NCBI GenBank assembly: GCA_039795775.1
Contig: JBDKLC010000003.1
Location: 797-64,796 of the forward strand
DNA length: 64,000 nucleotides
Direction: 5' to 3'
Source: Candidatus Parcubacteria bacterium
GTDB lineage: Bacteria; Patescibacteriota; Minisyncoccia; Phycocordibacterales; CAIZLB01
Within the stretch, counting starts at the first letter, position 1; the number at the start of each line of letters is the position of its first letter. The translations under genes and the position numbers were made by a program. The notes beneath the pieces are model-generated. The model worked only from the letters and a program-made list of their open reading frames with translations. It did no database searches and was not told the DNA's origin. Positions 2,383 to 64,000 of the stretch are shown piece after piece.

Positions 2383-2403
2383 GACGGCGTAAATAAGGCA
2401 GTG

Positions 2404-4023: not shown

Positions 4024-4311
4024 AGGACTGTGGAAAACTCTGTGGATATGTGTGTAAAACCTTGGGATATCTATCTAACAAGATAGGGATATCCTAGGGA
4101 TAGTGTGGGTAAATAGTGTTGAAAAATAAGGGGTTATACACACCCCACCACTTATCCCCATATCTGACTCACTCTTCACCCACAGATTGTTTACGGATAA
4201 AATAGAGAAAACCCTTTATTCCATAAGGATATAAAAAGTATTCCACATATCCACAGGCCTAATAGTAGTAATGCGGCGGTTTTAAATAAAAAATTAATTA
4301 ATTATAAAGAT
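4024..4311. promoter_or_regulatory. oriC-like region between dnaA and dnaN with several DnaA-box variants and an AT-rich unwinding element
   Basis: Box variants: TGTGGAAAA (4029-4037, rc TTTTCCACA), TGTGGATAT (4041-4049, rc ATATCCACA), TTATCCCCA (4152-4160), TATCCACAG (4247-4255). The AT-rich stretch lies at 4271-4310. Confidence 0.65.
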
Positions 4312-5412
4312 ATGAAAGCTGAATGTGTTCGAGAAAAATTGGCAGAGGCTGTCCACAAAGCAGAAAAGATAACCAGTAAGAATGCAACGCTTCCTGTCTT
4401 AAAGTGTGTCCTTATAGAAGCTACATCAGAAGGTCTTATTGTCCGATCAACTAATCTTGACCTTGGTATTGAATTGTTTGTTCCTGCAAAGGTTCACGAA
4501 CAAGGTTCTGTCGCTATTCCTGGAAGTACTCTCAATAGCTTCCTTTCAAATCTTTCAAACGAAAAAGGCGTTACCCTCGAAATGAAAGAAGGTAATATGT
4601 ACGTTTCTACATCTCGAACAAGTACTACTATTAAGGCCTTCCCACTTGAAGACTATCCATCTATTCCTAAAGTTGATACTGAGTCTGGTTTTAAGATGCC
4701 CTCAGATGCCTTTATTCGAGGTTTAAAGAGCGTTTGGTATAGTTCTGCGACATCTAGTATAAAACCCGAACTTTCGAGTGTGAGAGTGTATCCTGATGAA
4801 GAACACCTCGTCTTTGTTGCAACAGATGGTTTCCGTCTCGCCGAAAAGAAAGTAAAGGTAAAACAACTCCCAGAATTCAACCATATTCTCATCCCCGTAA
4901 AGAATGCTGTAGAAATAATTCGAGTTTTTGAAGGTATAAATGCTGATATTGCTATTTCTATCGAACAAAATCAGCTTGCACTCTCTTGTGATGGTATTTA
5001 CCTTGTTTCTCGAACAGTAGAAGGTAACTTCCCAGACTATAAGGCAATTATTCCAAAAGAATTTACTACTGAAGTGATCCTTTTGAAGCAAGACCTCGTA
5101 AATACCCTTAAATTGAGCACTATTTTTAGTGATTCATTCAACCACATCAAGTTTTTGGTTCATCCAATCTCTAAAGAGATCGAATTAATCACAAAAAACA
5201 CAGAAGTTGGTGAAAACGCCTCAAAACTTACCGGTGCAATAACTGGTGACAGTCTTGATATCAACTTCAATTACAAATACATTACAGACTCATTCCAAGC
5301 CGTAGATGCAGATAGTCTTAGTTTCTCATTTAGTGGGGGTAACAAGCCTCTTATTGTGAAAGGTGTGAGTGACAAGAGTTTTCTCTATCTTGTGATGCCA
5401 ATGAATAGATAA
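4312..5412 (+). CDS. dnaN: DNA polymerase III beta sliding clamp
   Basis: 366 aa immediately downstream of dnaA, with a three-domain clamp pattern and a PLEDYP motif. Confidence 0.9.
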   Translation: MKAECVREKLAEAVHKAEKITSKNATLPVLKCVLIEATSEGLIVRSTNLDLGIELFVPAKVHEQGSVAIPGSTLNSFLSNLSNEKGVTLEMKEGNMYVSTSRTSTTIKAFPLEDYPSIPKVDTESGFKMPSDAFIRGLKSVWYSSATSSIKPELSSVRVYPDEEHLVFVATDGFRLAEKKVKVKQLPEFNHILIPVKNAVEIIRVFEGINADIAISIEQNQLALSCDGIYLVSRTVEGNFPDYKAIIPKEFTTEVILLKQDLVNTLKLSTIFSDSFNHIKFLVHPISKEIELITKNTEVGENASKLTGAITGDSLDINFNYKYITDSFQAVDADSLSFSFSGGNKPLIVKGVSDKSFLYLVMPMNR

Positions 5413-14138: not shown

Positions 14139-15233
14139 ATGAATGCAAAACACCAAACCATCGGGATGGCTTCGCGTGCAAACGCGTGGTCCATCGTCAC
14201 CATCAACAACAACCTCAACATCGTCATCGCGTTTATCTTCGCGCTCTTTGGCTCGTTCGCTCACGCGGGCGACGCCGTCGTGAAAATCAACACCGGGCGT
14301 GATTCGAAGGAAGTGCGTCGCTTCGAGCGGCCAGCACCTCCGGTAGTGGTCGAAAGGCCAGTATATCGCGAGACCTGCGCTCCTGCGCCTCGGCGCTACG
14401 TGCAGAACAGCGATTGCAACACCGGCTCACGTCGGAGTGGCAACTTCGAGCTCGGATTCGGGCTCGGCTTCAACATCAAGCTCTGGGGCTCCGGTGCGCG
14501 TAATCGCTCCGGTTGCACTGACTGCGGTCAGGCAGGCTTGTGTGGCACGCATCACCAGCGCTTTATCAGCGACGGTGTTTGTGGGCAAGGCCAACAGGTC
14601 CTCGTCCAATCTGGATGTGGCTCTGGCGGTCGCTCACAAGCGACGGCTGTCCGCTACCAAGATGGCGTAGATCGCACCACGGTCCGAGAGGACTGGGATG
14701 ACCACGTTCATATCGAGGTCAATCAGAGTGGTATTGATTGCGACGGCATCGCTGCCGCTGCACTCGCTGCTACACGCGATCTGCCTTCTGGGCAACGTCG
14801 CGCTGCAATTGAGCGCTATGTCCGCGGACAACTGCCTGGCCTGTCGCCTCGCATCACCTACAATCGCGAGGTGACAAGTGTCACTCGCACGGTGAAGCAT
14901 GTCAGCTACACAAAAGGTGCTGACGGCTTCACCAACATCAACGTTCCAGACGGTCTGGATGGAGGTGGACAGGTGGATGGCGACGGATTCGTTGACCTCG
15001 GTGTCGAAGACGACCAATGCTCCAACGGAGCAAACGCATCGTTCCGACGGTTCCACGGAAATACTCGTGGAGGAAACGCCGCAATCGTGACCTCCTACAG
15101 TGGCAACCGTGCCATTCTGGTGGGCGATACCACCTATCAACGCGGACTCGCGAATCAAGGTGGGGTGTATATCCAAGACCCTTCCGTGGTTCGGCGCAGT
15201 CTGGACCGTGACCAATACCAATACCGGCGCTAA
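14139..15233 (+). CDS. hypothetical secreted Cys/Gly-rich protein encoded in a GC-rich (~60%) foreign cassette (likely signal peptide IVIAFIFALFGSFAHA)
   Basis: High GC3 in this frame only supports coding. Composition is totally unlike the flanking genes. Confidence 0.5.
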   Translation: MNAKHQTIGMASRANAWSIVTINNNLNIVIAFIFALFGSFAHAGDAVVKINTGRDSKEVRRFERPAPPVVVERPVYRETCAPAPRRYVQNSDCNTGSRRSGNFELGFGLGFNIKLWGSGARNRSGCTDCGQAGLCGTHHQRFISDGVCGQGQQVLVQSGCGSGGRSQATAVRYQDGVDRTTVREDWDDHVHIEVNQSGIDCDGIAAAALAATRDLPSGQRRAAIERYVRGQLPGLSPRITYNREVTSVTRTVKHVSYTKGADGFTNINVPDGLDGGGQVDGDGFVDLGVEDDQCSNGANASFRRFHGNTRGGNAAIVTSYSGNRAILVGDTTYQRGLANQGGVYIQDPSVVRRSLDRDQYQYRR

Positions 15234-15591: not shown

Positions 15592-16779
15592 ATGACTCCT
15601 AAAGAGTTCGCAGATAACGCAGCAATTGCTGCAAGTGCAACAAAAGCTACCATTGCGGCCATTGAGGCTCACCTCAATGACCCAACCAACGGTATCAAGA
15701 CGATCAGCGCTGCCCTTACAGGCCTCGCTGCGTCTCAGCCCAAACGCCGTGCGAAATATACGCAGGCACTCAGCGTTGTAACCGTTCTCGAAAAGACGGT
15801 TCTCCGCGCTCTCGCCACCGCAACCAAGGAGACGAAAGAGGCGGAAGACTCCGCTCAACGTGTCCATGTGGAGTCGGCGAAAACCTCGCCGAAGCCAAAT
15901 CCGAAGACCATGCAGAAGGATCTCGACGCGACAACGGCATCTCTCAAGGTTGCCGAGGCTGCGCTGAAGGACGCCTGTGATGCTCGCACTGCAGCTATTG
16001 CAGTGTTCGACGGGGTTAAACCCGCCGAATGGCGTGACGGTCAACGCACGCAGTGGCTTGTGGATCGCCCGTGGATCCCTATTGCCGCGATCGTGCTGCT
16101 CCTCATCTTCGTTGGCTGGCTATCGTATCGGGTCAGCCCGGACGGCCAGCACAACTCGGAGATCGGCTCGCTCAAGGAGCAAGTCGTGCTCCTCACCAAC
16201 GAAAAGAAAGACCTCGCCGAAAAAATGGCGGGTATGGTGGGCAAGGACCAACACGCGCTCGTCGAGAAGCAGATGACAGACGCCACAAAGGCGCAAGTCG
16301 CTGCGGAGGCCGAGCTCAACAAGCTCAAGGCAGCAACGGCCGGCGGAATGATCAGCAAGGTAGAAGCCGACGAGGCTCTCGCCAAACTGGTCGCTGATAA
16401 TGAACAGCTCCAATTGAGGTTGTTTAATCTGGAAAAAGCTGCCGCTTCGGCGCCAGCACCTGCCTCGACAAAGCCACCACAAATGGCCGCAAGTGGCAGC
16501 CAGCCGCAACCCGCAACACCTCCATCAACTGGAGCTGGTGTGCCTCAGTCGGACATGCCGTCCATCGTTCCTACCAACCAGATTCTGGCAGGTATCGGGG
16601 CTGGAACCATTGGTTACAGCCCGAGCTTGCGGAACTTCAAGGACATGCGTTCAGGGGTTAAATACTGGCCGGCTCAAGTAGCTGCCCTCGCAAAGCGTGA
16701 GGGTCTCACGTTGCCACAAACAACGCGGTCGGGAATCCCGATCGATTGGACCTCAGGTCCAGCGGCGGGCAAGCGCTAG
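15592..16779 (+). CDS. hypothetical membrane-anchored coiled-coil protein with Pro-rich linker and conserved C-terminal domain, in the GC-rich foreign cassette
   Basis: High GC3 coding frame, one predicted TM helix (IPIAAIVLLLIFVGWL), Ala/Lys/Glu-rich coiled-coil segments. Confidence 0.5.
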   Translation: MTPKEFADNAAIAASATKATIAAIEAHLNDPTNGIKTISAALTGLAASQPKRRAKYTQALSVVTVLEKTVLRALATATKETKEAEDSAQRVHVESAKTSPKPNPKTMQKDLDATTASLKVAEAALKDACDARTAAIAVFDGVKPAEWRDGQRTQWLVDRPWIPIAAIVLLLIFVGWLSYRVSPDGQHNSEIGSLKEQVVLLTNEKKDLAEKMAGMVGKDQHALVEKQMTDATKAQVAAEAELNKLKAATAGGMISKVEADEALAKLVADNEQLQLRLFNLEKAAASAPAPASTKPPQMAASGSQPQPATPPSTGAGVPQSDMPSIVPTNQILAGIGAGTIGYSPSLRNFKDMRSGVKYWPAQVAALAKREGLTLPQTTRSGIPIDWTSGPAAGKR

Positions 16780-31322: not shown

Positions 31323-31615
31323 GTTTTTGCGGTTTTTTAACCCGACATAGGATTTTTTTCCATACAAAAATCCCTTAGCCAGGACGATGGTATTACCCAC
31401 CCACACCAGTTTCCCGATGTGACCGCAAAAGTGACCCTAGACTAAGGGGTTTTTATACTTTTGCGGTGTTTATGACCATATCCTAGAAAACCAAGGGTCT
31501 TTTAGGGGTTAGGTCGCTTATTAAGTTGTAAATGAATTGTAGCAGATTTTCCGCTACTTTTGTACCTTAGCTTAGATATGGAGGCTTGCGAAGGGGTGGT
31601 TACCAACAACTCAAT

Positions 31616-32344
31616 TTAGCAGACTGTTGATCCAATTGTCTCAAGCTTCTCCTTAACTTTCTCCCATTTAGGAAACTTCTTGTCGAGAAAATCATAGAAC
31701 CGTTTATCATGGTTCTTATACTTCATGTGACAGAGTTCGTGTACGATAACATAATCAATACAGTCCTTTGAGGTATGAATAAGCCTAGGATTGAGGAATA
31801 TCTTATCCTGATTTAAGAAACTGCCCCAACGTTTCTTCATTTCTCTAACGGAAAGTTTCGGTGTGTTCTTGAAGTCAAAGAGTGAAAGCATTTCAGTGAA
31901 TCTGTCTTGGAGAATTAGGTTTGTCTTTTCTGCAAACCAGCTATCAACGAGTTTTTTGTTGTACTTGCTGTCTGTCACGGACTTAGTTGTAGATACAATC
32001 AACTGACCTCTAGTGAGAGAAACAGAATCTTCTTTACCTTTACGAACAATTAGTTTGTACTGTCTTCCGAGGTACAAATATCCCTCTCCCGAGATGTATT
32101 CTTTCTCATAAGTCTTTCGTTGATATTTTTTGAAGAATGAAAGTTGCTTCTCTAGCCAGAACCATTTCTTCTGGAGAAAGGTTTCGATTCTTTCGCCCTC
32201 TGCCTTGAATGGACACTTAACAATAATACGAAGATCTGGGGTGACAGTGAGGCTCAGGGTTTTACGATCTTGTTTTATAAGTTGGTATTCATATATGAAT
32301 GTTCCAAAAATGAATTCCTTCATATAATTATAAGAATAGATCAA
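31616..32344 (-). CDS. DUF45/YgjP-like (M48-related) metal-dependent hydrolase, a family frequently linked to hsdR
   Basis: HELCH zinc-binding HExxH motif, overlaps the hsdR stop. Confidence 0.6.
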   Translation of the reverse strand: MIYSYNYMKEFIFGTFIYEYQLIKQDRKTLSLTVTPDLRIIVKCPFKAEGERIETFLQKKWFWLEKQLSFFKKYQRKTYEKEYISGEGYLYLGRQYKLIVRKGKEDSVSLTRGQLIVSTTKSVTDSKYNKKLVDSWFAEKTNLILQDRFTEMLSLFDFKNTPKLSVREMKKRWGSFLNQDKIFLNPRLIHTSKDCIDYVIVHELCHMKYKNHDKRFYDFLDKKFPKWEKVKEKLETIGSTVC

Positions 32345-35300
32345 AGTTATTTTCTGCTAATTGCATTGCAGTATCAATAACGACCTTGATGTGATCATTA
32401 TCAATATTGATGCCTTTCTCGCCCTTAAACACATCGTAGAGGTAATCATCAATACTATTTCGCATCTTACGCTTCACATCCATGTTCTTGTACCAGTCTA
32501 CAATTGCCTCATTCTTAATGATCGTGAAGATATCAAGAATGGTGGCAATATAAACATCTTCACTGAGATTCAAATTTGCAAGCTCAGATCGCAAGTTACG
32601 ATAGAACACGTCTGATCCTTTCTGCGATTCAATTTTTTCTGGAAGACTCTCGTCTTTCTTGTTTACCACATCATCACTAATAAGCTTCATTTGTTTCAGA
32701 GCTTCAACATCAGCAAGTTTTCCTTGTCTCATTTTCTCAAGAATGTTAGAAATCTTCTTAGAGAATTTCTCATAGAATTCAGGGTCAGTATCCATTTTTT
32801 CTGTGATAGTCCTTTCAGTCTGTGCAGCGATTGCCTCAGCCTTTGATTTGTCAGAACCGAGTTCTGCTACAGCTTCTTCAAACTGCTTTCGATCAGTAAT
32901 GTTTACTTGCTTTGTGAGCAACTCAACACCACGAGCATCCACATACTTATCAAGGATATTGATAAGTGATTGTTTGTATTCAAGAAGATCAACACGGTCG
33001 GCATACTTCAAGCTCGCAGACTTACGAAGTTCCATAAACTTTTTAAGTTCACGTTTATAGAGATCAAGGTGCTTGAATTCATGAACGAAGTCCTGCAACA
33101 CAAAGCATTCGTTCAGGTTCTTGATGAACTCATTAAGTGTCTTGTAGAAAGTCTCACGCTTTGGCTGATCAGAAAGGAATTGGAGGTACACCTCATCATC
33201 GTTCGATCCTTTGATCTCATTAAACAAATCGTGGACAGTTCCATAGCTTTGTTCGAGATCTTGTATCTTTTCTGACACATCAATAAGAGTTCCTTTAATA
33301 TCGTTCTCATCATAGTTACCGAAAAGCTTCATAGCTGTATCAATGTTTTTAGCGTTCTCTGAGTAGTCCATGATATAGCCCGCAGTCTTTGGTTTTTCCT
33401 TTTTGTTTTCGTAAAGACGGTTTACACGAGCGATAGCCTGAAGTAGGTTATGATCTCTCAAGTCTTTAGCGAGATAGAGTACTGTGTTACGAGGTGCATC
33501 AAAGCCAGTGAGTAGCTTGTCTACCACGATGATCATCTCGATACCGTCATCGTTGTGCTTAAAGCTATCAACAACATCTTTTTCATATTTCTCAACACTA
33601 CTGTGATTTTTTCGAACACCCTCTAGGTATCCGACCACTTCTTTTTTGTGAAGATTTTCTTCATCACCGTCTTCATGCTCGTCGGAAATAATTACAGCAG
33701 TACGAACGTTTCCACGAGTCTCAAAGAACTTCTGGAAAAGAATTGCTGAATATTTAGATGGAGCAACAATTTGCGCCTTAAGCCCTGTGTATTGGAAGTT
33801 GTCGATAAAGTGCTTCTCTATATCATAAGCAATCTCAACAATACGCTGAGGATTGTCTTTAATTATCTTACTTCCAACGTATCGCTGTAGTTCCTTCTTC
33901 TGCTTATCATTGAGTCCTTCAGTGATTCGTTCAACATGGCGGTCAATCTGTTCCGCATTCTGAATAAGATCAACATAACGACCTTCGTAGATAAGGGGAA
34001 GAATAATCTTATCAGCTAAAGCATCATCAATCGTATACTTGTCGATATAGTCACCGAACTTCTTCCAACTCTCTCGGTCTTTCTTCATGAGAGGGGTACC
34101 AGTAAATCCGATGTAGCATGCATTTGGGATGATTCGATTCATCTCAAAGTTAGCCATACCGTTTTGACTTCGGTGCGCCTCGTCGATAAGGACAAAGATG
34201 TTTTTATCATCATCAATAAATCCTGTACTCTTTTTTGCAGCTGATTCAAACTTCTGAACAAGTGTAGTGATAACAGACAAATCTTTCTCCTTAATAAGAT
34301 CAATCAGGTGCTGACCACTTGTAGCCTGAATGACTTCCTTTTTGAGGTTACAGTTTTTGAATGTATCTTTAATTTGCTTGTCCAAATCCTTACGATCAGT
34401 AACGATGATCACACGAGGGTTGAGAATATGAGGATCTTCAATAAGGGTCTTCACAAACATCACCATGGTAAGCGATTTACCAGATCCTTGAGTGTGCCAA
34501 ACAAGCCCACCTTTTCGTCGAGTAATACCGTGATCAGTTACTTCTTCCTCTTCTACGCGCTTGAGCATCTTATGTATAGCAAAATACTGTTGGTATCGTG
34601 AAAGCTTCTTTACTCCTGCATCAAAGAGAATGTAATTCTTTGTTAGGTCTAAAAGTCTTTTTGGTTCGAATAAGAACATAACCCCACAATCCTGTTCGGT
34701 AGGAAGTCTGTCTGTTCTTTGTTTATGACCGTCAGTATATCCGTTCAAATCTTCAAGTACTTGAGTATATATTTCAGTATCAATTTTTTTATGAATAAGA
34801 CCTAATAGCTTTTCGCTAAGTATTTCCTGATCTGATCCTTTTTCTTTCCATACTGCATAGAACTTGTTAGGTGTACCAGTAGTTCCATACTGCAATTCTT
34901 TTCCATTAGTACCAACAAGAAGTTGAGTGTAAGTAAAAAGTTTAGGACAGAATTCAGGGCCCTGATTACGATTCATTTGATTGATAGCTTCCTTTACATC
35001 TACACTAGACTTTTTGTTCTCAATCACCGCAAAAGGGATACCGTTTACGAAGACTACGATATCGGGACGGACATTTTGTTTACCACTTGCTACAAATTCT
35101 ACAGAGACATGGAATGAGTTATTTTCTGGGTTCTCGAAGTCTATGAACTTAAAGTTCTTTGATACTTTCTTGCCCCCGTGATTTACTTTGATTGTCTTAC
35201 CTCCACTCGTTGGCATGATAGTGTTGTAGATCTTTTGTGCAGTATCTATAAGCCCTTCATACTGAATATGCTCAAGTTCATCGATGGCGTCTCGCACATC

Positions 35301-35522
35301 TTTCTCGCTGAATTTATATTCAACACCATCAACTTCGTATCCGTTGATTTCCATGAGCTTCTCCGCAGCAATGTCAGCGAGGATGAAGTTTGAAGTGTCA
35401 CCACGTTGTCGCAGTGCTTCAGCAACAGAAACATACTTGTAACCCATGTTCAACAGAAGCTCTACAAATGGGAGCTGTGACTGTCTGGCTTCATCGAAAT
35501 TTACGTTTATGAGTGATGACAT
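32328..35522 (-). CDS. hsdR: Type I restriction enzyme R subunit
   Basis: SF2 helicase motifs TQGSGKSLT (Walker A), DEAH (FVLIDEAHRSQ), 1064 aa. Confidence 0.92.
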   Translation of the reverse strand: MSSLINVNFDEARQSQLPFVELLLNMGYKYVSVAEALRQRGDTSNFILADIAAEKLMEINGYEVDGVEYKFSEKDVRDAIDELEHIQYEGLIDTAQKIYNTIMPTSGGKTIKVNHGGKKVSKNFKFIDFENPENNSFHVSVEFVASGKQNVRPDIVVFVNGIPFAVIENKKSSVDVKEAINQMNRNQGPEFCPKLFTYTQLLVGTNGKELQYGTTGTPNKFYAVWKEKGSDQEILSEKLLGLIHKKIDTEIYTQVLEDLNGYTDGHKQRTDRLPTEQDCGVMFLFEPKRLLDLTKNYILFDAGVKKLSRYQQYFAIHKMLKRVEEEEVTDHGITRRKGGLVWHTQGSGKSLTMVMFVKTLIEDPHILNPRVIIVTDRKDLDKQIKDTFKNCNLKKEVIQATSGQHLIDLIKEKDLSVITTLVQKFESAAKKSTGFIDDDKNIFVLIDEAHRSQNGMANFEMNRIIPNACYIGFTGTPLMKKDRESWKKFGDYIDKYTIDDALADKIILPLIYEGRYVDLIQNAEQIDRHVERITEGLNDKQKKELQRYVGSKIIKDNPQRIVEIAYDIEKHFIDNFQYTGLKAQIVAPSKYSAILFQKFFETRGNVRTAVIISDEHEDGDEENLHKKEVVGYLEGVRKNHSSVEKYEKDVVDSFKHNDDGIEMIIVVDKLLTGFDAPRNTVLYLAKDLRDHNLLQAIARVNRLYENKKEKPKTAGYIMDYSENAKNIDTAMKLFGNYDENDIKGTLIDVSEKIQDLEQSYGTVHDLFNEIKGSNDDEVYLQFLSDQPKRETFYKTLNEFIKNLNECFVLQDFVHEFKHLDLYKRELKKFMELRKSASLKYADRVDLLEYKQSLINILDKYVDARGVELLTKQVNITDRKQFEEAVAELGSDKSKAEAIAAQTERTITEKMDTDPEFYEKFSKKISNILEKMRQGKLADVEALKQMKLISDDVVNKKDESLPEKIESQKGSDVFYRNLRSELANLNLSEDVYIATILDIFTIIKNEAIVDWYKNMDVKRKMRNSIDDYLYDVFKGEKGINIDNDHIKVVIDTAMQLAENNFDLFL

Positions 35523-35526
35523 ATGT

Positions 35527-36774
35527 TTATTTGGTTAGTTTGGTTGATAATGTTTCTGGTGTGCGTATTTTGCCTGTAATGAGATTGTTGAGAAGGTAGC
35601 GTTTCTGTTCTTTGAAGATGGAAAGTTTCTTTTCAAGTGAATCAATCTCGTTATCTGTTGCTGTGAGAATGTTTGCAATAGCCGTTTGTTCCTTAATTTT
35701 CGGTATATGTATAACAACTTCGGAGACCGTCTCTTTTTTTAAGTTCTGCACTCCTGAACCTGCAGAGATAGAGCGAAATACGCTTTGAATTCTCGATGAG
35801 GAAAGGAGATAGTAAAGAAAGTCCTTATTGACTGATGATGAGATATCCATTAGCGCCAACCAACCGTCGTGTATACAAGCATTAATTTTCATTATGTAAG
35901 GACGACCAAAACTCATTGAATTTGAAAGAATAAAATCTCCTTCTTTTACTAATGTAGTTTTATTAAGTCCCTCCTTTTTAATCTTTTCAGTTGTCTTATA
36001 AATAAATCTGTCTCCAATTGGCACATCTCCAATTCTTAACCAATTCAGTCCGTCTTTATTTTCTGTAATATAATCCTGAATTGGTCGTGGTGATCCACCT
36101 CTTTTTATCTCGCAAATCTCACCAAGTACTTTGAATTCCCATTTATCTTCGAAACCTTTCAATCTCTTATTACCAGTGAGTAAATCTTGCATTAGGCCTT
36201 TTTTTACATTCTTCTTTACTTTTATTTTTTCAGTAATTTTTTCAATCAATTTGTCCCAAGTTTCAAGGACTGAAACAATACGATTTTGTTCAGATAGTGG
36301 AGGAAAGTTTAATTTAATCTTTTCGAAATCACCTTTTGAAACTTCAAGAAATGTACTGCCAGACCCCAATTTCATTAGAGTAGGCTTGATTGATTTAATG
36401 AAATAAAACAAATAATCCACCGTTGTATCTTTTTTTGGAATCAGATTTTTAAAACCTTGATTTGTAGAAATTGGATACGTAGAGATAGAACATTCTCCAA
36501 CCGTCGCACGAGTACAAACAATGAGACTCCCTTTTGGAAGCAATCTTGCGGAGCTATTTTTAAGACCAAGCTCTGTAATCTTCTTCTCTGTCTTTAATGT
36601 TATATATTTACCTGTTTTTGTGATTTCAGTTGGGGTTATCCAGTTTATTTCACCGTCCCAAAAATCTTTATTATTTGTATCAGGTGTGCCTCCAGACGAT
36701 ATATGTGAAACATCTGCAAGTGTAACTTGTGTCCAGCCAGATGGGATATCTTTTTGTAATTGATTATTTTTCAT
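35527..36774 (-). CDS. hsdS: Type I restriction-modification specificity subunit (two target-recognition domains)
   Basis: Two TRDs separated by a conserved helical spacer (LSEQNRIV...), with a C-terminal conserved region. Confidence 0.85.
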   Translation of the reverse strand: MKNNQLQKDIPSGWTQVTLADVSHISSGGTPDTNNKDFWDGEINWITPTEITKTGKYITLKTEKKITELGLKNSSARLLPKGSLIVCTRATVGECSISTYPISTNQGFKNLIPKKDTTVDYLFYFIKSIKPTLMKLGSGSTFLEVSKGDFEKIKLNFPPLSEQNRIVSVLETWDKLIEKITEKIKVKKNVKKGLMQDLLTGNKRLKGFEDKWEFKVLGEICEIKRGGSPRPIQDYITENKDGLNWLRIGDVPIGDRFIYKTTEKIKKEGLNKTTLVKEGDFILSNSMSFGRPYIMKINACIHDGWLALMDISSSVNKDFLYYLLSSSRIQSVFRSISAGSGVQNLKKETVSEVVIHIPKIKEQTAIANILTATDNEIDSLEKKLSIFKEQKRYLLNNLITGKIRTPETLSTKLTK

Positions 36775-36775
36775 A

Positions 36776-38023
36776 TTATTTGATTCTTGGTTTTTTCTTA
36801 AATAGATTTAATGTGTACTCAATTTTATTTAACAATTCATCAAAAGTAATAATCATTACCTCATTATTTGAAGACCTGAATAGTTCAAAACTATCTTTTT
36901 GTTTCGGGCTTAGATTTTTTAAATCACCAGCAATAACCACACATTGTGAATTTGAAATTTGTAAGCCAGATCCACCAAGTTTGGAATAGAAGTTTTTTAG
37001 CAATTCATGCTTCTGATCCTGAACTTGAATAAGTGAGCCAGACAAGTCCTTGCTTATAGGAAAAATACCTTTTCGATATTCTGTCTTCATTATTATGGGT
37101 GTTTTATGAGTTTTTATTTCTATAAAAGCAACGTTGTTGGTTAGATTGTTTTTATATAGAAAATCAACAATTTTATCACTATTGGTTTCTGTAATATTAT
37201 TGCCCCCGACATTAAATTTGTCTTTTGTAAGTGATACTGGAAAATAGAATACATTGCTAAAAATCCAGTTATTTTCATTGAAAAACTTTTGCCAATCCTC
37301 TTCTTTTGTATTTACTTTTAATAATCTTTTATATCTAGAAAGAATGTCCTCAACATATAAAGTGTCGATCTGCCCCTTTGAGGAAAGTAGTATTTCTTTA
37401 CTTAGAATCTTTTTATCAATAAAACCCTTAATGACAATTGAATCAGCATCAGATAGCTTCATCTGATCTATTTCGTATTTATTGAAGAAATTAGACAAGT
37501 CGTTTTCAGTATATTGAATTTTTTGAGCTACACTAAACTTAGATGGCAAAACTGAGTTAAAGATATTTTGATGCGTCTGTCTCAATTCCTTACTCTGCTT
37601 CTCTTTATTTTTTTGTGTACTATATTCAATTTTCCTGAAATCAGTTAAAAGGATTTGAAGTTTACCATTCTTGATTTCTGTTTTACCTTTTTCTAAAAAG
37701 ACAACTTCTTCAATATTTGGATATTTATCTTGAAAAAAATAAAACAAATCCTGAACTCCTTTAGGTTTTGTGAATCCGAAACCGCTCGAAACATTCACAG
37801 ATATACCTGAAGAAGGTCTTTTGCCTCCTGTGGTTGTAATCTTTTTTATAGAGCTATACTTATGTTTAATGGTCCCAAATGAGTTGTAAAATGGGTATCT
37901 TGTTATATTACCATTCGTAAATCTCTCTAAAGCCAAGAAGCCAGTGTCCTTATCCTTTAAATAAAGATTGAATGATTCTTTTAACTTAGTTTTATTTGCC
38001 GACACAAGAGAAACATCTTTCAT
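36776..38023 (-). CDS. PD-(D/E)xK nuclease-fold protein, Shedu (SduA/DUF4263)-like, embedded between hsdM and hsdS
   Basis: C-terminal block EEDWQKFF..NNWIF...DKIVDFLY-x10-VAFIEIK...QVQDQ...CVVIAGDL...FELFR...MIITFDELL matches my recollection of the DUF4263 profile. D-x15-ExK spacing is as in characterised Shedu. Confidence 0.5.
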   Translation of the reverse strand: MKDVSLVSANKTKLKESFNLYLKDKDTGFLALERFTNGNITRYPFYNSFGTIKHKYSSIKKITTTGGKRPSSGISVNVSSGFGFTKPKGVQDLFYFFQDKYPNIEEVVFLEKGKTEIKNGKLQILLTDFRKIEYSTQKNKEKQSKELRQTHQNIFNSVLPSKFSVAQKIQYTENDLSNFFNKYEIDQMKLSDADSIVIKGFIDKKILSKEILLSSKGQIDTLYVEDILSRYKRLLKVNTKEEDWQKFFNENNWIFSNVFYFPVSLTKDKFNVGGNNITETNSDKIVDFLYKNNLTNNVAFIEIKTHKTPIIMKTEYRKGIFPISKDLSGSLIQVQDQKHELLKNFYSKLGGSGLQISNSQCVVIAGDLKNLSPKQKDSFELFRSSNNEVMIITFDELLNKIEYTLNLFKKKPRIK

Positions 38024-38027
38024 ATAT

Positions 38028-39539
38028 TTATTTGATTCCTAGTTCCTTTAGGTATACGACCATTTGTTTCTCAAGCTTCTCAAGCTGTGGCTCAAGCTCA
38101 GCAAGCTCTTTCAGGTTTGCTTTGATATCTACAGGAGCTTCTTCGGTAAACGTATCCACATAGCGAGTGATATTAAGGTTGAAATCATTCTCCTCAATTT
38201 CTTTAAGACTTACTTTACGAGCAAACTTCGCTACATCTTTGCGAGCCTTGTAGGTAGAGTAAATCTTTTCGATGTTTTCATCGGTGAGAATATTTTGAGC
38301 TTTGTTAGATTTGAATTCCTTTGATGCTTCGATAAAGAACACATCTTTTTTACTTTCATTTTCTCCACCTTTTTCTCGTGAGCGATCGATAACAAGAATT
38401 GCGACAGGGATACCCGTTGTTTGGAATAGTCCTGCAGGAAGTCCGATTACAGCCTCAATGATATTTTCCCTGAGAAGTTGTTCACGAATTTTACCTTCTG
38501 CACCACCTCGAAAGAGAACGCCGTGAGGAACAATAACAGCAATACGTCCTGTCTTTGGCTTTGCTGTCTCAATCATGTGAGTAATAAAGGCAAAGTCACC
38601 CTTGTCCTTTGGTGGAGTGCCACGCCAGAATCGTTTGTATTTGTCGGCATCTGCATGTTCAGCGCCCCATTTCTTGAGAGAGAACGGTGGGTTACTTACG
38701 ATTGTATCGAATTTCATTAAGTGATCATTTTCTACAAGGAGTGGATTATTTAAAGTATCGCCCCATTCAAGTCGCGCTGAATCTTTTCCATGGAGAAACA
38801 TGTTCATTCGAGCGAGTTGATATGTTGAACCTGTTGATTCTTGGCCATAGAGAGCGTAGTTCTTTGAACCTTGTTTTTCTACTTCTTCACCTGCAAGTAA
38901 AAGGAGACCTCCTGATCCAGAACATGGGTCACAAATACGAGCACCTGCTTTTGGTTCTGCAAGTTTTGCTACGAGATGAGCAACATTCCTTACTGTAAAA
39001 AATTCTCCAGCTTTTTTTCCTGCATCTGCTCCAAACTTCTCAATAAGATACATATATGAGTTACCAATGACATCATCATTCACGCCAGTGAGGTCAATTT
39101 TTGCAAAGTCCTGTACAAGATTACGAAGCATCTTGTTTCGCTCTGCAAGTTTTCCAAGATTTGATTCTGAGTTGAAGTCTACAGAAAATACACCATCAAG
39201 TTTTTCCTTGTTGTGATCTTCAATACGATGAAGTGCTTTGTTTATTTCTTCTCCAAGATTATCTTGCTCGATAATTGAATAGATATAGTCAAACGATGAC
39301 TTCGGAGGGAGATAGAAGCGGTCAAGCTTCATTTTCTCTTCAATACGTTTCTCATCACCTGCGAATCTTTTTTTGTATTCGTCATGTGTGTTTTTTGATT
39401 TATCGCTAAGATATTTCAAGAAAAGCATTGGGAGTACATAGTTCATGTAATCCGCCGCATTGAGTTGGCTTCGAGAGGAGTTTGCTGAGTCCCATAGGAT
39501 TTTATTTAGGTCTTCTTGTGTGTATTTTTTGTTGGTCAT
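38028..39539 (-). CDS. hsdM: Type I restriction-modification N6-adenine DNA methyltransferase subunit
   Basis: Motif I CDPCSGSGG and motif IV NPPF. Confidence 0.92.
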   Translation of the reverse strand: MTNKKYTQEDLNKILWDSANSSRSQLNAADYMNYVLPMLFLKYLSDKSKNTHDEYKKRFAGDEKRIEEKMKLDRFYLPPKSSFDYIYSIIEQDNLGEEINKALHRIEDHNKEKLDGVFSVDFNSESNLGKLAERNKMLRNLVQDFAKIDLTGVNDDVIGNSYMYLIEKFGADAGKKAGEFFTVRNVAHLVAKLAEPKAGARICDPCSGSGGLLLLAGEEVEKQGSKNYALYGQESTGSTYQLARMNMFLHGKDSARLEWGDTLNNPLLVENDHLMKFDTIVSNPPFSLKKWGAEHADADKYKRFWRGTPPKDKGDFAFITHMIETAKPKTGRIAVIVPHGVLFRGGAEGKIREQLLRENIIEAVIGLPAGLFQTTGIPVAILVIDRSREKGGENESKKDVFFIEASKEFKSNKAQNILTDENIEKIYSTYKARKDVAKFARKVSLKEIEENDFNLNITRYVDTFTEEAPVDIKANLKELAELEPQLEKLEKQMVVYLKELGIK

Positions 39540-39540
39540 G

Positions 39541-40185
39541 TTAGTTCTTAGTTAAGTTAGTAAAGCTTGCGTTGATAATGGTTTTTTGAATTTCTTGTTT
39601 TCTTTTAAATATCCGTTCTTGTTCAATAATATTTTCGTGGAGCGCGATGATCGACTTCTGCGTATGGATAGGAGGTATTGGTATTGGGAAGTCCGTGAGG
39701 TTTTTCACAAGGATGCTTTGTATATATGAAGCACCTGTGACTATTTGAGCGAGAGCTTTTTGCCCATCCTGTGAATTGAGATATAGGGATACATACTTCG
39801 GGAGAACGGTAACATCTTTGATTCGGATGACATGAACCGATGATGAGGGCATCACGTTTGTGTTGTCTGAAGCAAAAACAGCAGAACGGAATGACCCAGC
39901 ACCTGAGCCTCTGGAAACGAGTAAAATGTCGTTATGTTCAAGAAAGTAAGGGTTTCTAATGGATTTGTCTGAAACGATAACTAGGTCATTAGTATTCAAA
40001 ATATCTTGATTTATAGCTATATTCTTGGCTTGTAGCACAAAAATAGCGCCTTTTGGGTCGTTTTCGATGGATCCACGGAATGTGTACCCAGAGGCCATGT
40101 CTGCTATTTCGCTCAATTTCTTGTGCATGTAAGGACTATACTGCACTTTACAATAAAATGCAAATTTAGGTCTTTTAGTTACCAA
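39541..40185 (-). CDS. hsdS: half-size Type I specificity subunit (single TRD plus conserved helical region), first gene of the R-M operon
   Basis: Single TRD-like region followed by ...IIALHENIIEQERIFKRKQEIQ conserved HsdS helix. 214 aa, about half the size of a normal HsdS. Confidence 0.6.
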   Translation of the reverse strand: MVTKRPKFAFYCKVQYSPYMHKKLSEIADMASGYTFRGSIENDPKGAIFVLQAKNIAINQDILNTNDLVIVSDKSIRNPYFLEHNDILLVSRGSGAGSFRSAVFASDNTNVMPSSSVHVIRIKDVTVLPKYVSLYLNSQDGQKALAQIVTGASYIQSILVKNLTDFPIPIPPIHTQKSIIALHENIIEQERIFKRKQEIQKTIINASFTNLTKN

Positions 40186-54384: not shown

Positions 54385-55287
54385 ATGAATAGAAAAAGAC
54401 TCAAAATTCTCCCAGTCCCTGGAGCTCTCGAAGCACAGTGGTCGAGGTGTCTTGTATTTTGCCCAATGCGGCGATATAGCCCTCGGGAGTTCTTGCAACT
54501 CTTTGGTCCTCACGACGTGATGACCTATGCCAAACCTGGCCGGTTGCTCATTGAAGGAGACCCTACAGGGGGTCACATCAATGTCATTCATCGCAAGATG
54601 GAAGTCACAACTCGTCTTCATGAGTGGGAAACTCTGGTGGTCGTCACTGACCAGCGGACTGCAGACCCAAACATGTTGGTGGAAAGGCTTACTCTGGAAG
54701 CGCTTCGTGCTAGACGGGATACCGTTATGCTCGGGCGCCTCAGAGTGCTACACATCCACATTGGCGAAAACAGCACGTGGGATGACCACGGAATGAAGCT
54801 GACCTTTCCTCTGCAGTGTCTCAAGTGCATCGAAGTGGGCTGTCTGGATCCGCGTTTGGTCAACGGACGAGCTAATCGTCCGCCCAAAAAACGAAAACCC
54901 ATATTTTCTTATCCAGCAGTGTTACTCGATTTAGTCCAAGGCAATGAAGAGGAATCCCGGTGGCTTGTGGAAAATCTCTCGCATGCCGTAGCACATTACG
55001 GAACACGTAAGATCGTCATTCAAGCACATGAAGATTGCAAAGCTCATCCGGTCCCCGGCGAGCAGGAAAACTTGCATGTTGGAATGAAGGCCCGTCAGGA
55101 AGTGTCCGAAAAGGCAATCCAAATCCTGAGCAAAGTGCCTTCTTTGCGCAACGTTCGTTTTTCTCTCGGCTACGAAACACTCGACGGAGTGCGTCTGGCT
55201 GTCCGTCGTCAACGACTGGGTCTTCAGGACGAACAACTCATCGTCTCTGGACTTCCTATGTCTGGAATGGAATCAGCACCTCACTAA
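54385..55287 (+). CDS. hypothetical protein in a GC-elevated (~51%) cassette (true start may be internal)
   Basis: Composition shift. Followed by a very GC-rich hairpin terminator. Confidence 0.4.
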   Translation: MNRKRLKILPVPGALEAQWSRCLVFCPMRRYSPREFLQLFGPHDVMTYAKPGRLLIEGDPTGGHINVIHRKMEVTTRLHEWETLVVVTDQRTADPNMLVERLTLEALRARRDTVMLGRLRVLHIHIGENSTWDDHGMKLTFPLQCLKCIEVGCLDPRLVNGRANRPPKKRKPIFSYPAVLLDLVQGNEEESRWLVENLSHAVAHYGTRKIVIQAHEDCKAHPVPGEQENLHVGMKARQEVSEKAIQILSKVPSLRNVRFSLGYETLDGVRLAVRRQRLGLQDEQLIVSGLPMSGMESAPH

Positions 55288-60452: not shown

Positions 60453-60564
60453 TGTTTTATTTAAGAGTGTTTGAATGTTGAGATTGACAAAAGCCCATAT
60501 CGGGAGTATTATTATGTACATAGATATCAACCACACCCGGGAGGGTGTTTTTAAATACAAAATT

Positions 60565-60744
60565 ATGTCATTAACTGATTACATCAAAGAAACACGAGCC
60601 GAAATGAAGCACGTGAGTTGGCCAACAAAGCGACAGACAATCGTATTCACAATCGTTGTGATCGCAATTTCAGTATTTGTTGCAATATATCTTGGTCTCT
60701 TTGACTACCTCTTCACTACACTTCTCAAAGATTTCATTATCTAG
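60565..60744 (+). CDS. secE: preprotein translocase subunit SecE
   Basis: 59 aa with a single TM helix, immediately upstream of nusG, with the KETRAEMKHVSWPT SecE signature. Confidence 0.8.
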   Translation: MSLTDYIKETRAEMKHVSWPTKRQTIVFTIVVIAISVFVAIYLGLFDYLFTTLLKDFII

Positions 60745-60778: not shown

Positions 60779-61321
60779 ATGTCAAAACAAGCTCAAGGCG
60801 AACGAAATTGGTACGCAATCCACACATACGCTGGATATGAAAACGCAGTAATGCGAAACCTCAAGCAGCGAATCGAGTCTCTCGGTATGGAAGACCGAAT
60901 TTTCAACGTGGTTGTTCCAACGGAAAAAAGCATCAAGATCAAAGCAGGGAAGCGAGTAGAAGAAGAAGAAAAGATTTACCCAGGATATGTACTCGTAGAT
61001 ATGATCGTAACTGACGATTCATGGTACGTAGTTCGAAACACTCCTCGAGTAACAGGATTCGTAGGTTCAGGTGTATTCCCAGTACCTGTAAATAAGGCAG
61101 AAGTAGAAGGTCTCTTCAAACGAATGAATACAGAGACTGTAAAACACACTATCGACCTCACATCTGGCGACCTCATTACTATTACAGACGGTCCATTCAA
61201 GGATCTCGAAGGTAAGGTTTCAGAAGTAGACAATGACCGAGGAAAGGTTCGAGTACTCGTATCTATGTTCGGCCGAGAAACTCCAGTAGAGCTCGATTTC
61301 TTGCAAGTTAAGCGAATGTAA
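60779..61321 (+). CDS. nusG: transcription termination/antitermination factor NusG
   Basis: NGN domain WYAIHTYAGYE, KOW motif GD.I.I.DGPFKDLEGKV. Confidence 0.92.
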   Translation: MSKQAQGERNWYAIHTYAGYENAVMRNLKQRIESLGMEDRIFNVVVPTEKSIKIKAGKRVEEEEKIYPGYVLVDMIVTDDSWYVVRNTPRVTGFVGSGVFPVPVNKAEVEGLFKRMNTETVKHTIDLTSGDLITITDGPFKDLEGKVSEVDNDRGKVRVLVSMFGRETPVELDFLQVKRM

Positions 61322-61416
61322 GGTAATTTATAAGAACTTCAGCCACACAACCGCCACGCTTCTAGGCGGCCTCAGGATTGAAGAAGCAAAGAATATATTC
61401 AAAAATTTATACAAAT

Positions 61417-61839
61417 ATGGCTAAAAAGATAATCAAACAGCTTAAATTGCAGATTCCTGCAGCTAAAGCAAACCCAGCACCTCCAGTAGGTCCAGCTCTC
61501 GGTCAGGCGGGCGTAAACATCGGAGAATTCGTAAAGCGATTCAACGATGCTACAGCCAAAATGGCCGGTAGTATTGTCCCAGTAGTGATCTCAGTATTCG
61601 ACGATCGAACATTCGATTTCGTAATGAAGACACCTCCTGCGGCATCTCTCATTCTCAAAGCCGCTGGCCTCGAGAAGGGATCAGGAACTCCAAACTCTAA
61701 GAAAGTAGGTTCAATCACAAAGGCACAACTCAAAGCAATCGCTGAACAGAAAATGCCAGACCTCAATGCAAAAGACATTGAAGGCGCAATGAAAATGATT
61801 GAAGGTAGTGCAAAAGCACTTGGTATCGAAGTTAAATAA
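61417..61839 (+). CDS. rplK: 50S ribosomal protein L11
   Basis: [22 protein letters not shown] signature. Confidence 0.92.
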
Positions 61840-61852
61840 ATAGACTCGAAAC

Positions 61853-61886
61853 AAAAACACCCCGTACGTGGGGTGTTTTTGTTTGT
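61853..61886 (+). terminator. terminator (AAAAACACCCCGTACGTGGGGTGTTTTTGTTTG)
   Basis: Perfect hairpin followed by T-run. Confidence 0.7.
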
Positions 61887-61947
61887 CTGCGTTTTAGACA
61901 AATGTGGTTGACCTCATGGTTAAACTCGCGTACAGTTTTATCCTAGG

Positions 61948-62433
61948 ATGAACATATCCGCTGAGAAAAACGTGCTCCTGTTTGCTGGATTAGGCAGGGC
62001 CCCGGAGCAATACAGTCAATCCATTCAAGGAGATCGTGGAATCGTCGATCTCCTTCGTCGGTCCGAGATCGGAGTGATGAACTTCGAATCGGAACTTAAA
62101 CCACCACAGCACACAAGTTCAGTTAGCATGCCAGAGACGCTTCTCGTGTTCAATGAAATGCAACTGACACCTGAAAAACAGCCAGACTTTTGGCTGCGAG
62201 CAAATCTTCTCGTATTCATCATCGACTTCGAGTCGATGGAGATGGGAGCAAGACTCGCAGAAGCGCAAGAGTATGGCTACCGCATATTATTCCTTCGCCA
62301 CTCGGTGAACGCTGCACGGCCCTTGCCGTCTATGCTTACACCGAAGGAATGCGAAGCAGTCCGCACATATTCGACTGTCCAAGATGTGGTTCGCCACGTG
62401 AACGACACCATCGAGTCTCATGCGAAAAAGTAA
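61948..62433 (+). CDS. hypothetical protein in a GC-elevated (~50%) cassette, possibly nucleoside 2-deoxyribosyltransferase-like fold
   Basis: ANLLVFIIDFESMEMGARLAEAQEYGYRILFL loosely resembles the NDT-like active-site region. Weak call. Confidence 0.3.
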   Translation: MNISAEKNVLLFAGLGRAPEQYSQSIQGDRGIVDLLRRSEIGVMNFESELKPPQHTSSVSMPETLLVFNEMQLTPEKQPDFWLRANLLVFIIDFESMEMGARLAEAQEYGYRILFLRHSVNAARPLPSMLTPKECEAVRTYSTVQDVVRHVNDTIESHAKK

Positions 62434-62507
62434 TTGCAGGTGCAATACAACTATGTGTAAACGTGGTGACACCACAACCGTCGGTCGTTTCAATAACGAC
62501 TGGCACA

Positions 62508-62560
62508 ACCAAAAGGGCCCCGCGCGCAGGACGCGCACGGGGCCTTTTATCTTTTTACAA
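62508..62560 (+). terminator. GC-rich terminator hairpin GGGCCCCGCGCGCAGGACGCGCACGGGGCC followed by a T-run
   Basis: Long GC stem followed by TTTTATCTTTTT. Confidence 0.6.
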
Positions 62561-62581
62561 TTCGTTAAGAATAGGTTGAAC

Positions 62582-63265
62582 CTATTTTTGTTTTTTCTTA
62601 ATGTCTCGATCGAGGTAGAGCTTTGGAAGCATGTCAGACGGTTTCCATCTTTTCTGAAGAACCTTGATGTCGTTTGATGTGTTGTATTTTCCTGATGCAC
62701 TGTAGTCACTTCCGAGGATAGGGCCTGTTTCAAAGAAGATAATCTGAGCAATTCGACGACCTACAACGAGGGGAATGATGTAGTTCTTTGAGTTGTTTGT
62801 GATTTCCATTGTCCATCGGTTGATGTACCCAACGTCACCCCAGCCGGCACATTTACATACTTCGATAAAACTTCGTCCGAGAGATGAGCGAGCTTTCATC
62901 ATAGTTGTGATGTGATCTCGTCCACCAATGAATTCGTTTGTGTGAGCAAGGATAGTTTCACCTGGTCGAAGGAGTATCACTTTGTCTGATGGACTGATTC
63001 CGTCCCAAGAGAAATTATATTTTTCGAATGCCTCTTTTGCTGTGATAGCTTTTTCTACATTGTCTGCACCCCATACGTGTTCCATATGTGACTGACTCCA
63101 AATGTTGTAGATACTATGGTTGTATTTTGGCTGTTGTTCTCGAAAGAAAAATTCGCCCAATGTTACGTCGTAACTTGATGTTGCGAGGTTCTCTCGTTTG
63201 AAGGGAGTGATGATAATGTCTCCAGCTTTTACTGCCTCTAGAATTCGTGTGTCTGATAGTGCCAT
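62582..63265 (-). CDS. dcd: dCTP deaminase
   Basis: MALSDTRILEAV N-terminus and dUTPase-like fold motifs. Confidence 0.8.
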   Translation of the reverse strand: MALSDTRILEAVKAGDIIITPFKRENLATSSYDVTLGEFFFREQQPKYNHSIYNIWSQSHMEHVWGADNVEKAITAKEAFEKYNFSWDGISPSDKVILLRPGETILAHTNEFIGGRDHITTMMKARSSLGRSFIEVCKCAGWGDVGYINRWTMEITNNSKNYIIPLVVGRRIAQIIFFETGPILGSDYSASGKYNTSNDIKVLQKRWKPSDMLPKLYLDRDIKKKQK

Positions 63266-63311
63266 ATATGTATAAATTATTTTTTAATTGTAGTTTGATA
63301 TATGACTTTGT

Positions 63312-63839
63312 CTACTGTACGGAAGAGAGATTGTATTCTGCAAAAAGGGTACCGGTCTCTGTTTTTTCGAGCGAAACCAATTCGAGGGCTTGGTGTAGGG
63401 GTTTATTGAAGAGAGTAATTCCTGAACCAAAAAGGATTGGCTCATAGGTAATATACAGTTTTGTAACTAGACCAGATTCTATAAATTTTGTATAGATTTC
63501 TGAGCCACCACAGATGGCTACCGAAGTGTACCCTCGCTGCTCGAGAGACTGTATAAGTTCTGCCGGTTCTACATTTGTAAATTCAAGGTTGTCAAAAGTT
63601 TCAGTCTGAGATGCGTGAGCTTTTTCTGGGTCTCTTGTATACACAATATTGAGACGCTCTTTGAGTGGTTTTGGCATGGTTGCAAATGTTTTTGAACCCA
63701 TAACAATCACTCGAGCTTCTTTACTCAGTCGAACAAAACGCTGCTTATCTTCTTTGCTTGTCCAACTTACTGAAATTTGGTTTGAATCTTTTGCTATGAA
63801 ACCATCTGAGGTGAGGGAAGCGATAATGAATACATTCAT
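63312..63839 (-). CDS. dihydrofolate reductase family protein
   Basis: ARVIVMGSKTFATMPKPLKERLNIV resembles DHFR R.VIMGRKT..S...PLP.R.NIV. Adjacent to thyA. Confidence 0.6.
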   Translation of the reverse strand: MNVFIIASLTSDGFIAKDSNQISVSWTSKEDKQRFVRLSKEARVIVMGSKTFATMPKPLKERLNIVYTRDPEKAHASQTETFDNLEFTNVEPAELIQSLEQRGYTSVAICGGSEIYTKFIESGLVTKLYITYEPILFGSGITLFNKPLHQALELVSLEKTETGTLFAEYNLSSVQ

Positions 63840-63857
63840 AATAGTGTGAGTTACAGG

Positions 63858-64000
63858 TTAAACCGCCATTTTTGCTTTGATCGCTTCTTCTGGATTGTAG
63901 TCAACAAGTTTTACAAGTTCTTCAAGTCCTTTTTGATCAGGGATCTTTTTTGTATCGAGGTCTTCGAGTGATTTGATATTTGGATTGAGCCAAAGTTTAG
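63858..64000 (-). CDS. thyA: thymidylate synthase ThyA, 3' end only (runs off the window)
   Basis: Manual translation of the minus strand ends ...LVDYNPEEAIKAKMAV*, resembling the ThyA C-terminus. Partial. Confidence 0.4.
   Translation of the reverse strand, partial: KLWLNPNIKSLEDLDTKKIPDQKGLEELVKLVDYNPEEAIKAKMAV

Follow-up and report, generated by a model that had tools for sequence, protein, structure and literature searches.

Why does the secE-nusG-rplK gene cluster of a Candidatus Parcubacteria bacterium end at rplK, and what is the gene of elevated G+C content (GC) that stands behind it? The cluster is located near the end of a stretch of 64,000 nucleotides (positions 797 to 64,796 of contig JBDKLC010000003.1, GenBank assembly GCA_039795775.1), which is referred to below as the window. 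The gene in question, ORF161, is an open reading frame (ORF) of 161 amino acids (aa) at 61948-62433 on the forward strand, and beyond it lies the convergent dcd gene. The original prediction, made from the DNA letters of the window, regarded the cluster as truncated and offered three explanations: a rearrangement breakpoint, a foreign cassette inserted at a hotspot, or a location of rplA elsewhere in the genome. It also suggested that the protein might have a fold similar to that of nucleoside 2-deoxyribosyltransferase (NDT). The features it described, which are the terminator after rplK, the 161-aa ORF of about 50% GC, the GC-rich terminator following this ORF and the convergent dcd, are all present where it had placed them. 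The reading that we favor, with a probability of about 0.6, is that this is a locus of the OD1-L1 group of Parcubacteria, in which ORF161 is an inherited, catalytically degenerate protein of the NDT fold and not a recent import.

The ribosomal protein cluster ends at rplK throughout the clade

The source contig (JGI Ga0451679_0000006) is annotated by NCBI as belonging to a Candidatus Parcubacteria metagenome-assembled genome (MAG). The best matches of its ribosomal protein L11, 66-85% identical, are MAGs of Parcubacteria, Paceibacterota or Patescibacteria. The name and the L11 matches place the MAG within the Parcubacteria/Paceibacteria. Two sets of loci were collected, 80 from GTDB genomes with the L11 protein and 80 from metagenomes with the dcd protein. 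All ORFs of the GTDB set were scanned with hidden Markov models (HMMs), and those for L1, L10, L12, L11 and NusG were built from loci within that set.

The L1, L10 and L12 models found no match across the window, nor within 10 kb of rplK in any of the 46 Parcubacteria/Paceibacterota loci from GTDB, the closest relatives included. According to the L1 model, L1 lies directly 3' of rplK in nearly all loci from outside the candidate phyla radiation (CPR) that reach past rplK, and also in three other CPR loci, L040, L041 and L062. In the metagenomic set, dcd is convergent with rplK-nusG in 53 of the 80 loci, none of which has L1. Taken together, the two sets provide about 100 related Parcubacteria loci, all of them lacking rplA, rplJ and rplL in the 6-10 kb around rplK, and the upstream order folD-SIMPL-secE-nusG-rplK is widely common to the relatives. 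The same three genes were not found in the 10 kb beyond the window start, which hold only genes similar to those of type IV secretion systems (T4SS); about 76 kb of the 85-kb contig was covered. Some relatives have an ORF of about 200 aa after rplK. These ORFs were considered as divergent L1 proteins and rejected; they are cytidylyltransferase-like, NDK or unknown proteins.

The OD1-L1 group of Parcubacteria is described as having no ribosomal protein L1 (Brown et al. 2015, as cited in PMC5220378), and the absence of L1 was confirmed on complete CPR genomes (bioRxiv 10.1101/2022.01.07.475337). The bacterium studied here shares with this group its annotation as a Parcubacterium and the missing rplA after rplK, both in its own locus and in the related ones, whereas rplA directly follows rplK in the L1-bearing loci from within and outside the CPR. 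The cluster would end at rplK because the bacterium belongs to this L1-lacking group. Judged from gene order, the operon end after rplK is an old, clade-wide, lineage-specific organization. Compared with the canonical secE-nusG-rplKA-rplJL-rpoBC arrangement, the order and orientation of secE, nusG and rplK are kept, but a terminator follows rplK and the next neighbor is a convergent gene cluster for dTMP synthesis. In our view of the clade, the secE-nusG-rplK unit ends with an intrinsic terminator after rplK, rplA is missing from this place and, if the literature on the group applies, from the genome, and rplJ and rplL have no linkage to rplK.

These results bear on two of the explanations offered earlier. 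A breakpoint conflicts with the cluster end being common to the 46 GTDB and 53 metagenomic loci, and also with an independent Logan assembly of run SRR35181295 (L002), which is 100% identical over 61525-64000, so that the junctions are not due to misassembly. A location of rplA elsewhere in the genome is a poor fit, since the locus matches the published L1 loss in OD1-L1; by analogy with that group, L1 is probably absent from the whole genome of this MAG. The original prediction had itself named a signature of ancient organization, namely the same arrangement and uniform composition in related genomes. The end of the cluster after rplK is common to every related Parcubacteria locus examined, which largely agrees with this signature; the GC of ORF161 is raised. 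The "truncated" cluster is thus known biology of L1-less Parcubacteria, to be regarded neither as a breakpoint nor as an island.

In two of the L1-bearing CPR loci, rplA is separated from rplK by an inserted gene for a DUF5671 protein (L040:10431-11432 and L062:10429-10908).

ORF161 and its homologue in a sister genome

A word-indexed protein search returned ORF161 itself as the sole match. An exhaustive phmmer search of 1.84 billion representative proteins gave one further protein, P0002 (E = 1.7e-7), which has 171 aa and is collinear with ORF161 for almost the entire length, with an identity of 32-33%. When the alignment of these two sequences was compared with a word-indexed database of 5.8e9 proteins, no members beyond the pair were found. 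P0002 is the only detectable homologue of ORF161 among about 15 billion proteins.

P0002 is encoded by ORF171 on a 4.2-kb Logan contig (L083), in the same slot as ORF161. The gene order on this contig is rplK and ORF171, followed on the opposite strand by His_Phos_1, dcd, folA and thyA. Between the window and the sister contig, L11 is 91%, dcd 89% and folA 82% identical, and the flanking DNA 79-88%, as compared with 33% for ORF161. The similarity detected by blastn ends at 61885, after the rplK terminator, and returns at 62565, at the end of dcd. The identity of ORF161 and P0002 at the first, second and third codon positions is 0.50, 0.59 and 0.32, respectively. The nonsynonymous divergence (dN) of the pair is 0.76 and the synonymous divergence (dS) is 1.9, which gives a dN/dS of about 0.4; the flanking genes have a dN of 0.06-0.13 and a dN/dS of 0.05-0.09. 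The codon periodicity, together with this ratio, indicates that the ORF161 frame is coding and is under weak purifying selection. Its nonsynonymous rate is 6-12 times that of its neighbors.

A divergent NDT/DNPH1-like subfamily behind rplK

Standard libraries do not identify the protein. ORF161 and P0002 have no Pfam match even at an E-value of 10 and no NCBIfam match at E 0.1-1. ORF161 matched nothing in PHROGs or among PDB sequences, and nothing in PADLOC below E 0.03; a profile search of PDB with the two-sequence alignment gave nothing useful. A degenerate L1 or another ribosomal protein was rejected as a candidate: hhalign comparison with L1, L10, L12 and L11 gave probabilities of at most 0.3%, and ORF161 is acidic (pI 5.6).

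The profile of the pair weakly matched two ORFs in the collected loci, both of which are clear PF05014 proteins of the NDT/DNPH1 type. Aligned by hhalign with 41 DNPH1-like proteins, it gave a probability of 83.6% (E 8e-6) over 84 columns. As a control, for each of 105 loci, the ORF that comes first after rplK in the same orientation was compared with the DNPH1-like profile. Only four stood out, those of L048 (96%), ORF161 (79%), L086 (59%) and L075 (57%), all others being at or below 17%. The distance from rplK to the start of the three genes in L048, L086 and L075 is 49-136 nt. An HMM representing this post-rplK subfamily matches canonical PF05014 NDT proteins at 4.7e-13 and adds a gene of L053, which starts 33 nt after rplK. 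When ORF161 and P0002 were left out, the HMM still recovered ORF161 with E = 0.0014 among 11,360 ORFs, the noise beginning at E of about 1, and hhalign gave 66% over 122 columns that include the N-terminal APEQY/APEEF motif. Against solved structures, the six-sequence subfamily profile matched DNPH1/Rcl with E-values of 6e-7 to 2.5e-5 and NDTs with 0.05-0.08. The syntenic members have only sub-threshold PF05014 matches (E 0.001-0.17) or none.

These comparisons support the assignment of ORF161 as a very divergent member of the NDT/DNPH1 superfamily, in a subfamily that recurs directly after rplK; at sequence-profile level, they also support the fold suggested by the original prediction. This unannotated subfamily has predicted members directly after rplK in no fewer than four further Parcubacteria. 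They are L048:10472-10945 (GC of the gene 0.51 and of the locus 0.53), L053:452-1057 (0.42 and 0.42), L075:6550-7140 (0.54 and 0.51) and, on the reverse strand, L086:5850-6272 (0.65 and 0.58), and in these distant carriers the gene GC is close to that of the locus. The recurrence of such a subfamily right after rplK is new and can be used in the annotation of "hypothetical" CPR genes.

ORF161 resembles the DNPH1/Rcl and NDT enzymes (PF05014; PDB 2KHZ, 4P5E, 4FYH and 1F8X) in the core strand, the PSxGxGxE loop and helix and the C-terminal part. It is of similar size (about 140-160 aa) and is likewise found among genes of deoxynucleotide metabolism. It differs from them in about 25 inserted residues that separate the N-terminal strand from the core, in the SIRGGR phosphate loop, which is not conserved, and in its very fast evolution.

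The active site

In human DNPH1, conserved residues of importance for catalysis are the nucleophile Glu104 and also Tyr24 and Asp80, and the phosphate is bound by Ser98, Gly100, the backbone of Ile29-Gly31 and Ser128' (PMC10483697). The catalytic columns were mapped from two alignments (A6 and A7), in which the column of the N-terminal Tyr rests on a weak alignment. The proteins of L048, L086 and L075 keep Tyr, Asp and Glu. In ORF161, Tyr is replaced by Leu11, Asp by Gln78 and Glu by Arg102. P0002 has Leu or Ile in place of Tyr and Ser in place of Glu and keeps the Asp, and the L053 protein has lost both Tyr and Glu. ORF161 retains Ser96 and Gly100 in the region of the phosphate-binding loop.

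With substitutions at the catalytic Tyr, Asp and Glu, ORF161 is not expected to perform the canonical glycosyl-transfer or hydrolysis chemistry, and its canonical catalytic activity has probably been lost. The lineage of this genome and L083 would have lost the canonical active site, with the changes Tyr to Leu, Asp to Gln and nucleophilic Glu to Arg in ORF161. The protein may persist as a pseudoenzyme that binds nucleotides or nucleosides, or it may be drifting towards loss. A branch of the subfamily with no active site and unusually fast evolution is another new finding. It offers a small test case for the evolution of pseudoenzymes and for that of GC-elevated orphan genes in AT-rich reduced genomes.

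Inheritance or import

The composition of ORF161 is unusual, as the original prediction had stated. Its GC is 0.500 and its GC at third codon positions (GC3) is 0.543, in a window with a mean GC of 40%. The 65 genes of the window have a mean GC of 0.406 (standard deviation 0.046) and a mean GC3 of 0.347 (0.080), which corresponds to z-scores of 2.1 and 2.5 for ORF161; its GC3 is the third highest in the window. The sister gene encoding P0002 has a GC of 0.53, and the GC3 of the pair is 0.54-0.55. The syntenic homologue and the recurrence of the subfamily suggest that ORF161 was inherited vertically. Comparisons of ORF161 with viral contigs, phage genomes and plasmids gave no match. A search for mobile-element borders around it gave only short chance repeats, with no target-site duplications, terminal repeats or mobility genes.

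Several points weigh against this reading. Both orthologues have a raised GC and GC3 even though their synonymous sites are saturated (dS of about 1.9), which simple vertical inheritance under an AT-biased genome composition does not explain; recombination-associated GC bias is a possible cause. The nearest GTDB relatives (L003-L008, with L11 80-85% identical) have no NDT-like gene after rplK, and the distribution of the gene is therefore patchy. With an E-value cutoff as loose as 10, the PF05014 model still gives no match to ORF161. The AlphaFold2 models of ORF161, computed from a single sequence and from two sequences, have predicted local distance difference test (pLDDT) values of 42.7 and 46.7. 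Both are unusable, so that the NDT fold lacks structural confirmation and a Foldseek search of PDB with such a model, which gave no match with E below 1, is meaningless. The absence of rplA was seen only over the approximately 76 kb of the 85-kb contig, and the L10 and L12 models, which derive from sequences outside the CPR, may overlook CPR versions that have diverged.

The strongest alternative is an exchange within the clade, which we consider plausible and clearly less probable than inheritance. The ORF161 unit, consisting of promoter, gene and terminator, would have entered the common ancestor with the L083 genome from a GC-richer Parcubacterium by homologous recombination in the conserved rplK and dcd flanks. 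The donor would already have carried an NDT-like gene after rplK, the unit would since have been only partly adjusted to the composition of the recipient, and the gap would be a hotspot of recombination or cassette exchange. This history accounts for the raised GC and GC3 of both orthologues and for the missing gene in the nearest relatives. GC-rich Parcubacteria with a member in the same slot do exist (locus GC 0.53 in L048, 0.51 in L075 and 0.58 in L086, with 0.65 for the gene of the latter). The content of the gap is highly variable, an example being the low-GC His_Phos_1 gene that is present in L083 and missing here, and the other three top-GC genes of the window likewise have no or only a weak Pfam match. 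On the other hand, no donor-like sequence above 33% identity was found among the approximately 15 billion proteins. ORF161 and P0002 are mutually closest relatives and share derived features, namely the loss of the catalytic Glu and the ESM and PLPS motifs. The borders carry no repeats or mobility genes, and both the putative promoter and the terminator upstream have conserved counterparts in the sister contig.

A related and more doubtful proposal regards the slot of L1-less Parcubacteria as a recombination hotspot at which highly divergent NDT-fold genes are exchanged and diversify. The ORF161/ORF171 branch, having lost its active site, would have acquired a new function, and its persistently high GC3 would be due to frequent recombination with GC-biased gene conversion rather than to a foreign origin. 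It might then be a nucleotide-binding regulator, or an inhibitor or immunity-type protein under diversifying selection.

It is unlikely that ORF161 has kept enzymatic activity in deoxynucleotide salvage and works with the dcd-folA-thyA products by means of a non-canonical active site. A neighborhood of nucleotide-metabolism genes throughout the clade, the conserved Ser96 and Gly100 and a dN/dS below 1 would agree with such a role. Nevertheless, all three essential or highly conserved residues (Tyr24, Asp80 and Glu104 in human numbering; PMC10483697) are replaced. The replacements also differ between ORF161 (Leu, Gln, Arg) and P0002 (Leu/Ile, the original Asp, Ser), and the 6-12-fold higher dN than in the flanks is unusual for a housekeeping enzyme.

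Very little speaks for the recent insertion, at a hotspot after rplK, of a foreign cassette that came from outside the clade (from a phage, a plasmid or a different phylum). The raised GC, a promoter and a terminator of its own and the orphan status in standard family libraries would fit. The 33%-identical homologue occupies the same slot between flanks that are 82-91% identical, so that any insertion must be older than the split from L083. Subfamily members occur at the same position, 33-136 nt after rplK, in distant Parcubacteria. Viral contigs, phage genomes, plasmids, PHROGs and PADLOC gave no match, and the flanks contain no target-site duplications or terminal repeats. An artefact, either a misassembly or rearrangement breakpoint behind rplK or a GC-rich spacer mistaken for a gene, might be suspected from the composition shift at 61.9-62.6 kb and the distance of only about 3 kb to the contig end, and can practically be dismissed in view of the independent assembly identical across the whole junction, the synteny common to about 100 loci and an in-frame homologue with a coding-type pattern of substitutions.

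The gap between rplK and dcd

Across the clade, a dcd/folA/thyA cluster is conserved in convergent orientation to rplK. The intervening gap ranges from 42 to 2,619 bp, with a median of 1,066 bp in the 53 metagenomic loci. Genes found in the gap of relatives encode ThyA, ThyX, Tmk, F420-ligase-like, DHFR-like, NDK and cytidylyltransferase-like proteins, and several have no family match. The description of this spot as hotspot-like in the original prediction agrees with such variability. The gap between the rplK unit and the thyA-folA-dcd unit may thus be viewed as a variable space that holds nucleotide-metabolism genes and unknowns, with ORF161 as its occupant here, probably forming a small transcription unit of its own that extends from a putative promoter to a shared bidirectional terminator. 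The conserved convergent junction with its variable gap appears to be new; a limited search of the OD1-L1 literature found no mention of either.

In the sister contig, a low-GC His_Phos_1 phosphatase gene (L083, 1403-2020, reverse strand; GC 0.35, GC3 0.19) is located between the ORF171 terminator and dcd. It is missing from the window, which constitutes an indel inside the gap.

Genes and transcription signals of the locus

The forward-strand unit consists of secE (60514-60744; PF00584 with E 3e-18, TIGR00964 with 56.9 bits), nusG (60779-61321; TIGR00922 with 199.9 bits, PF02357 and KOW) and, as the final gene, rplK (61417-61839; TIGR01632 with 191.9 bits and both L11 Pfam domains). The rplK product is a 140-aa form in NCBI (MEN9649147.1). 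The unit is followed at 61849-61890 on the forward strand by an intrinsic terminator, which is a 15-bp perfect inverted repeat with a subsequent T-run. Its hairpin (61849-61884) has a free energy of -26.3 kcal/mol, with a z-score of -6.1 relative to shuffled sequences, and the terminator is kept in the sister contig.

ORF161 starts 109 nt after rplK. A sigma-70-like putative promoter (TTGACC, 17 nt, TACAGT; 61908-61936, forward strand), which scores 9/12 in a consensus scan, ends 11 nt before the ATG. At the equivalent place in L083, promoter-like hexamers (TTGACC-17-TAGAGT) end 9 nt before the ATG, in DNA that has otherwise diverged. This element is likely to be used as the ORF161 promoter, and the distance of 11 or 9 nt between the -10-like hexamer and the ATG suggests a nearly leaderless mRNA. 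No recognizable Shine-Dalgarno sequence is present at normal spacing before rplK (61406-61419) or ORF161 (61937-61950). Many L1-missing Parcubacteria are reported to have no anti-Shine-Dalgarno motif (bioRxiv 10.1101/2022.01.07.475337). An Rfam scan of the region found no structured RNA or leader and returned only terminator-like matches below threshold.

ORF161 and dcd share a GC-rich bidirectional terminator at 62512-62556, with A and T runs on either side. The hairpin at 62512-62548 folds strongly on both strands (-30.7 kcal/mol and z -5.6 on the forward strand, -31.4 kcal/mol and z -4.2 on the reverse strand) and can therefore terminate transcription of both genes. On the reverse strand, convergent with rplK, lies dcd, which encodes a dCTP deaminase-like protein (62582-63265; PF22769 with E 1.8e-31). 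A folA-like dihydrofolate reductase gene (63312-63839; PF00186 and PF01872) is located upstream of it in the thyA-folA-dcd unit, and thyA is the next gene, just past the window end on the contig.

Other features of the window

The strongest GC outliers of the window are two forward-strand ORFs of 364 and 395 aa at 14139-15233 and 15592-16779 (GC 0.58, GC3 0.62, z of about 3.4-3.9). They have no Pfam match and are located between a gene for a PilB-like T2SSE ATPase (12210-13934) and tsaE. A further gene of high GC (0.51) at 54385-55287 has only a weak Pro_CA_2 match. The four highest-GC genes of the 65, ORF161 included, thus have no or only a weak Pfam match.

The start of the window (1261-5412) contains a replication-origin gene set, with yidC, rnpA and rpmH on the contig, dnaA at 2689-4023 and dnaN at 4312-5412. 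The T4SS-like genes just outside the window start (L164) include those for a TraG P-loop protein, a TraC-like protein and PrgI. A defence island occupies 31386-40185 on the reverse strand. It contains a LOOT RNA (Rfam RF03000, 71 bits) at 31386-31515, a YgjP-like peptidase gene and a type I restriction-modification operon composed of hsdR (32328-35522), hsdS (35527-36774), hsdM (38028-39539) and a half-hsdS (39541-40185). A Shedu SduA_C-like gene (36776-38023) is located inside this operon, and the GC falls to 0.30-0.32 at 36-38 kb.

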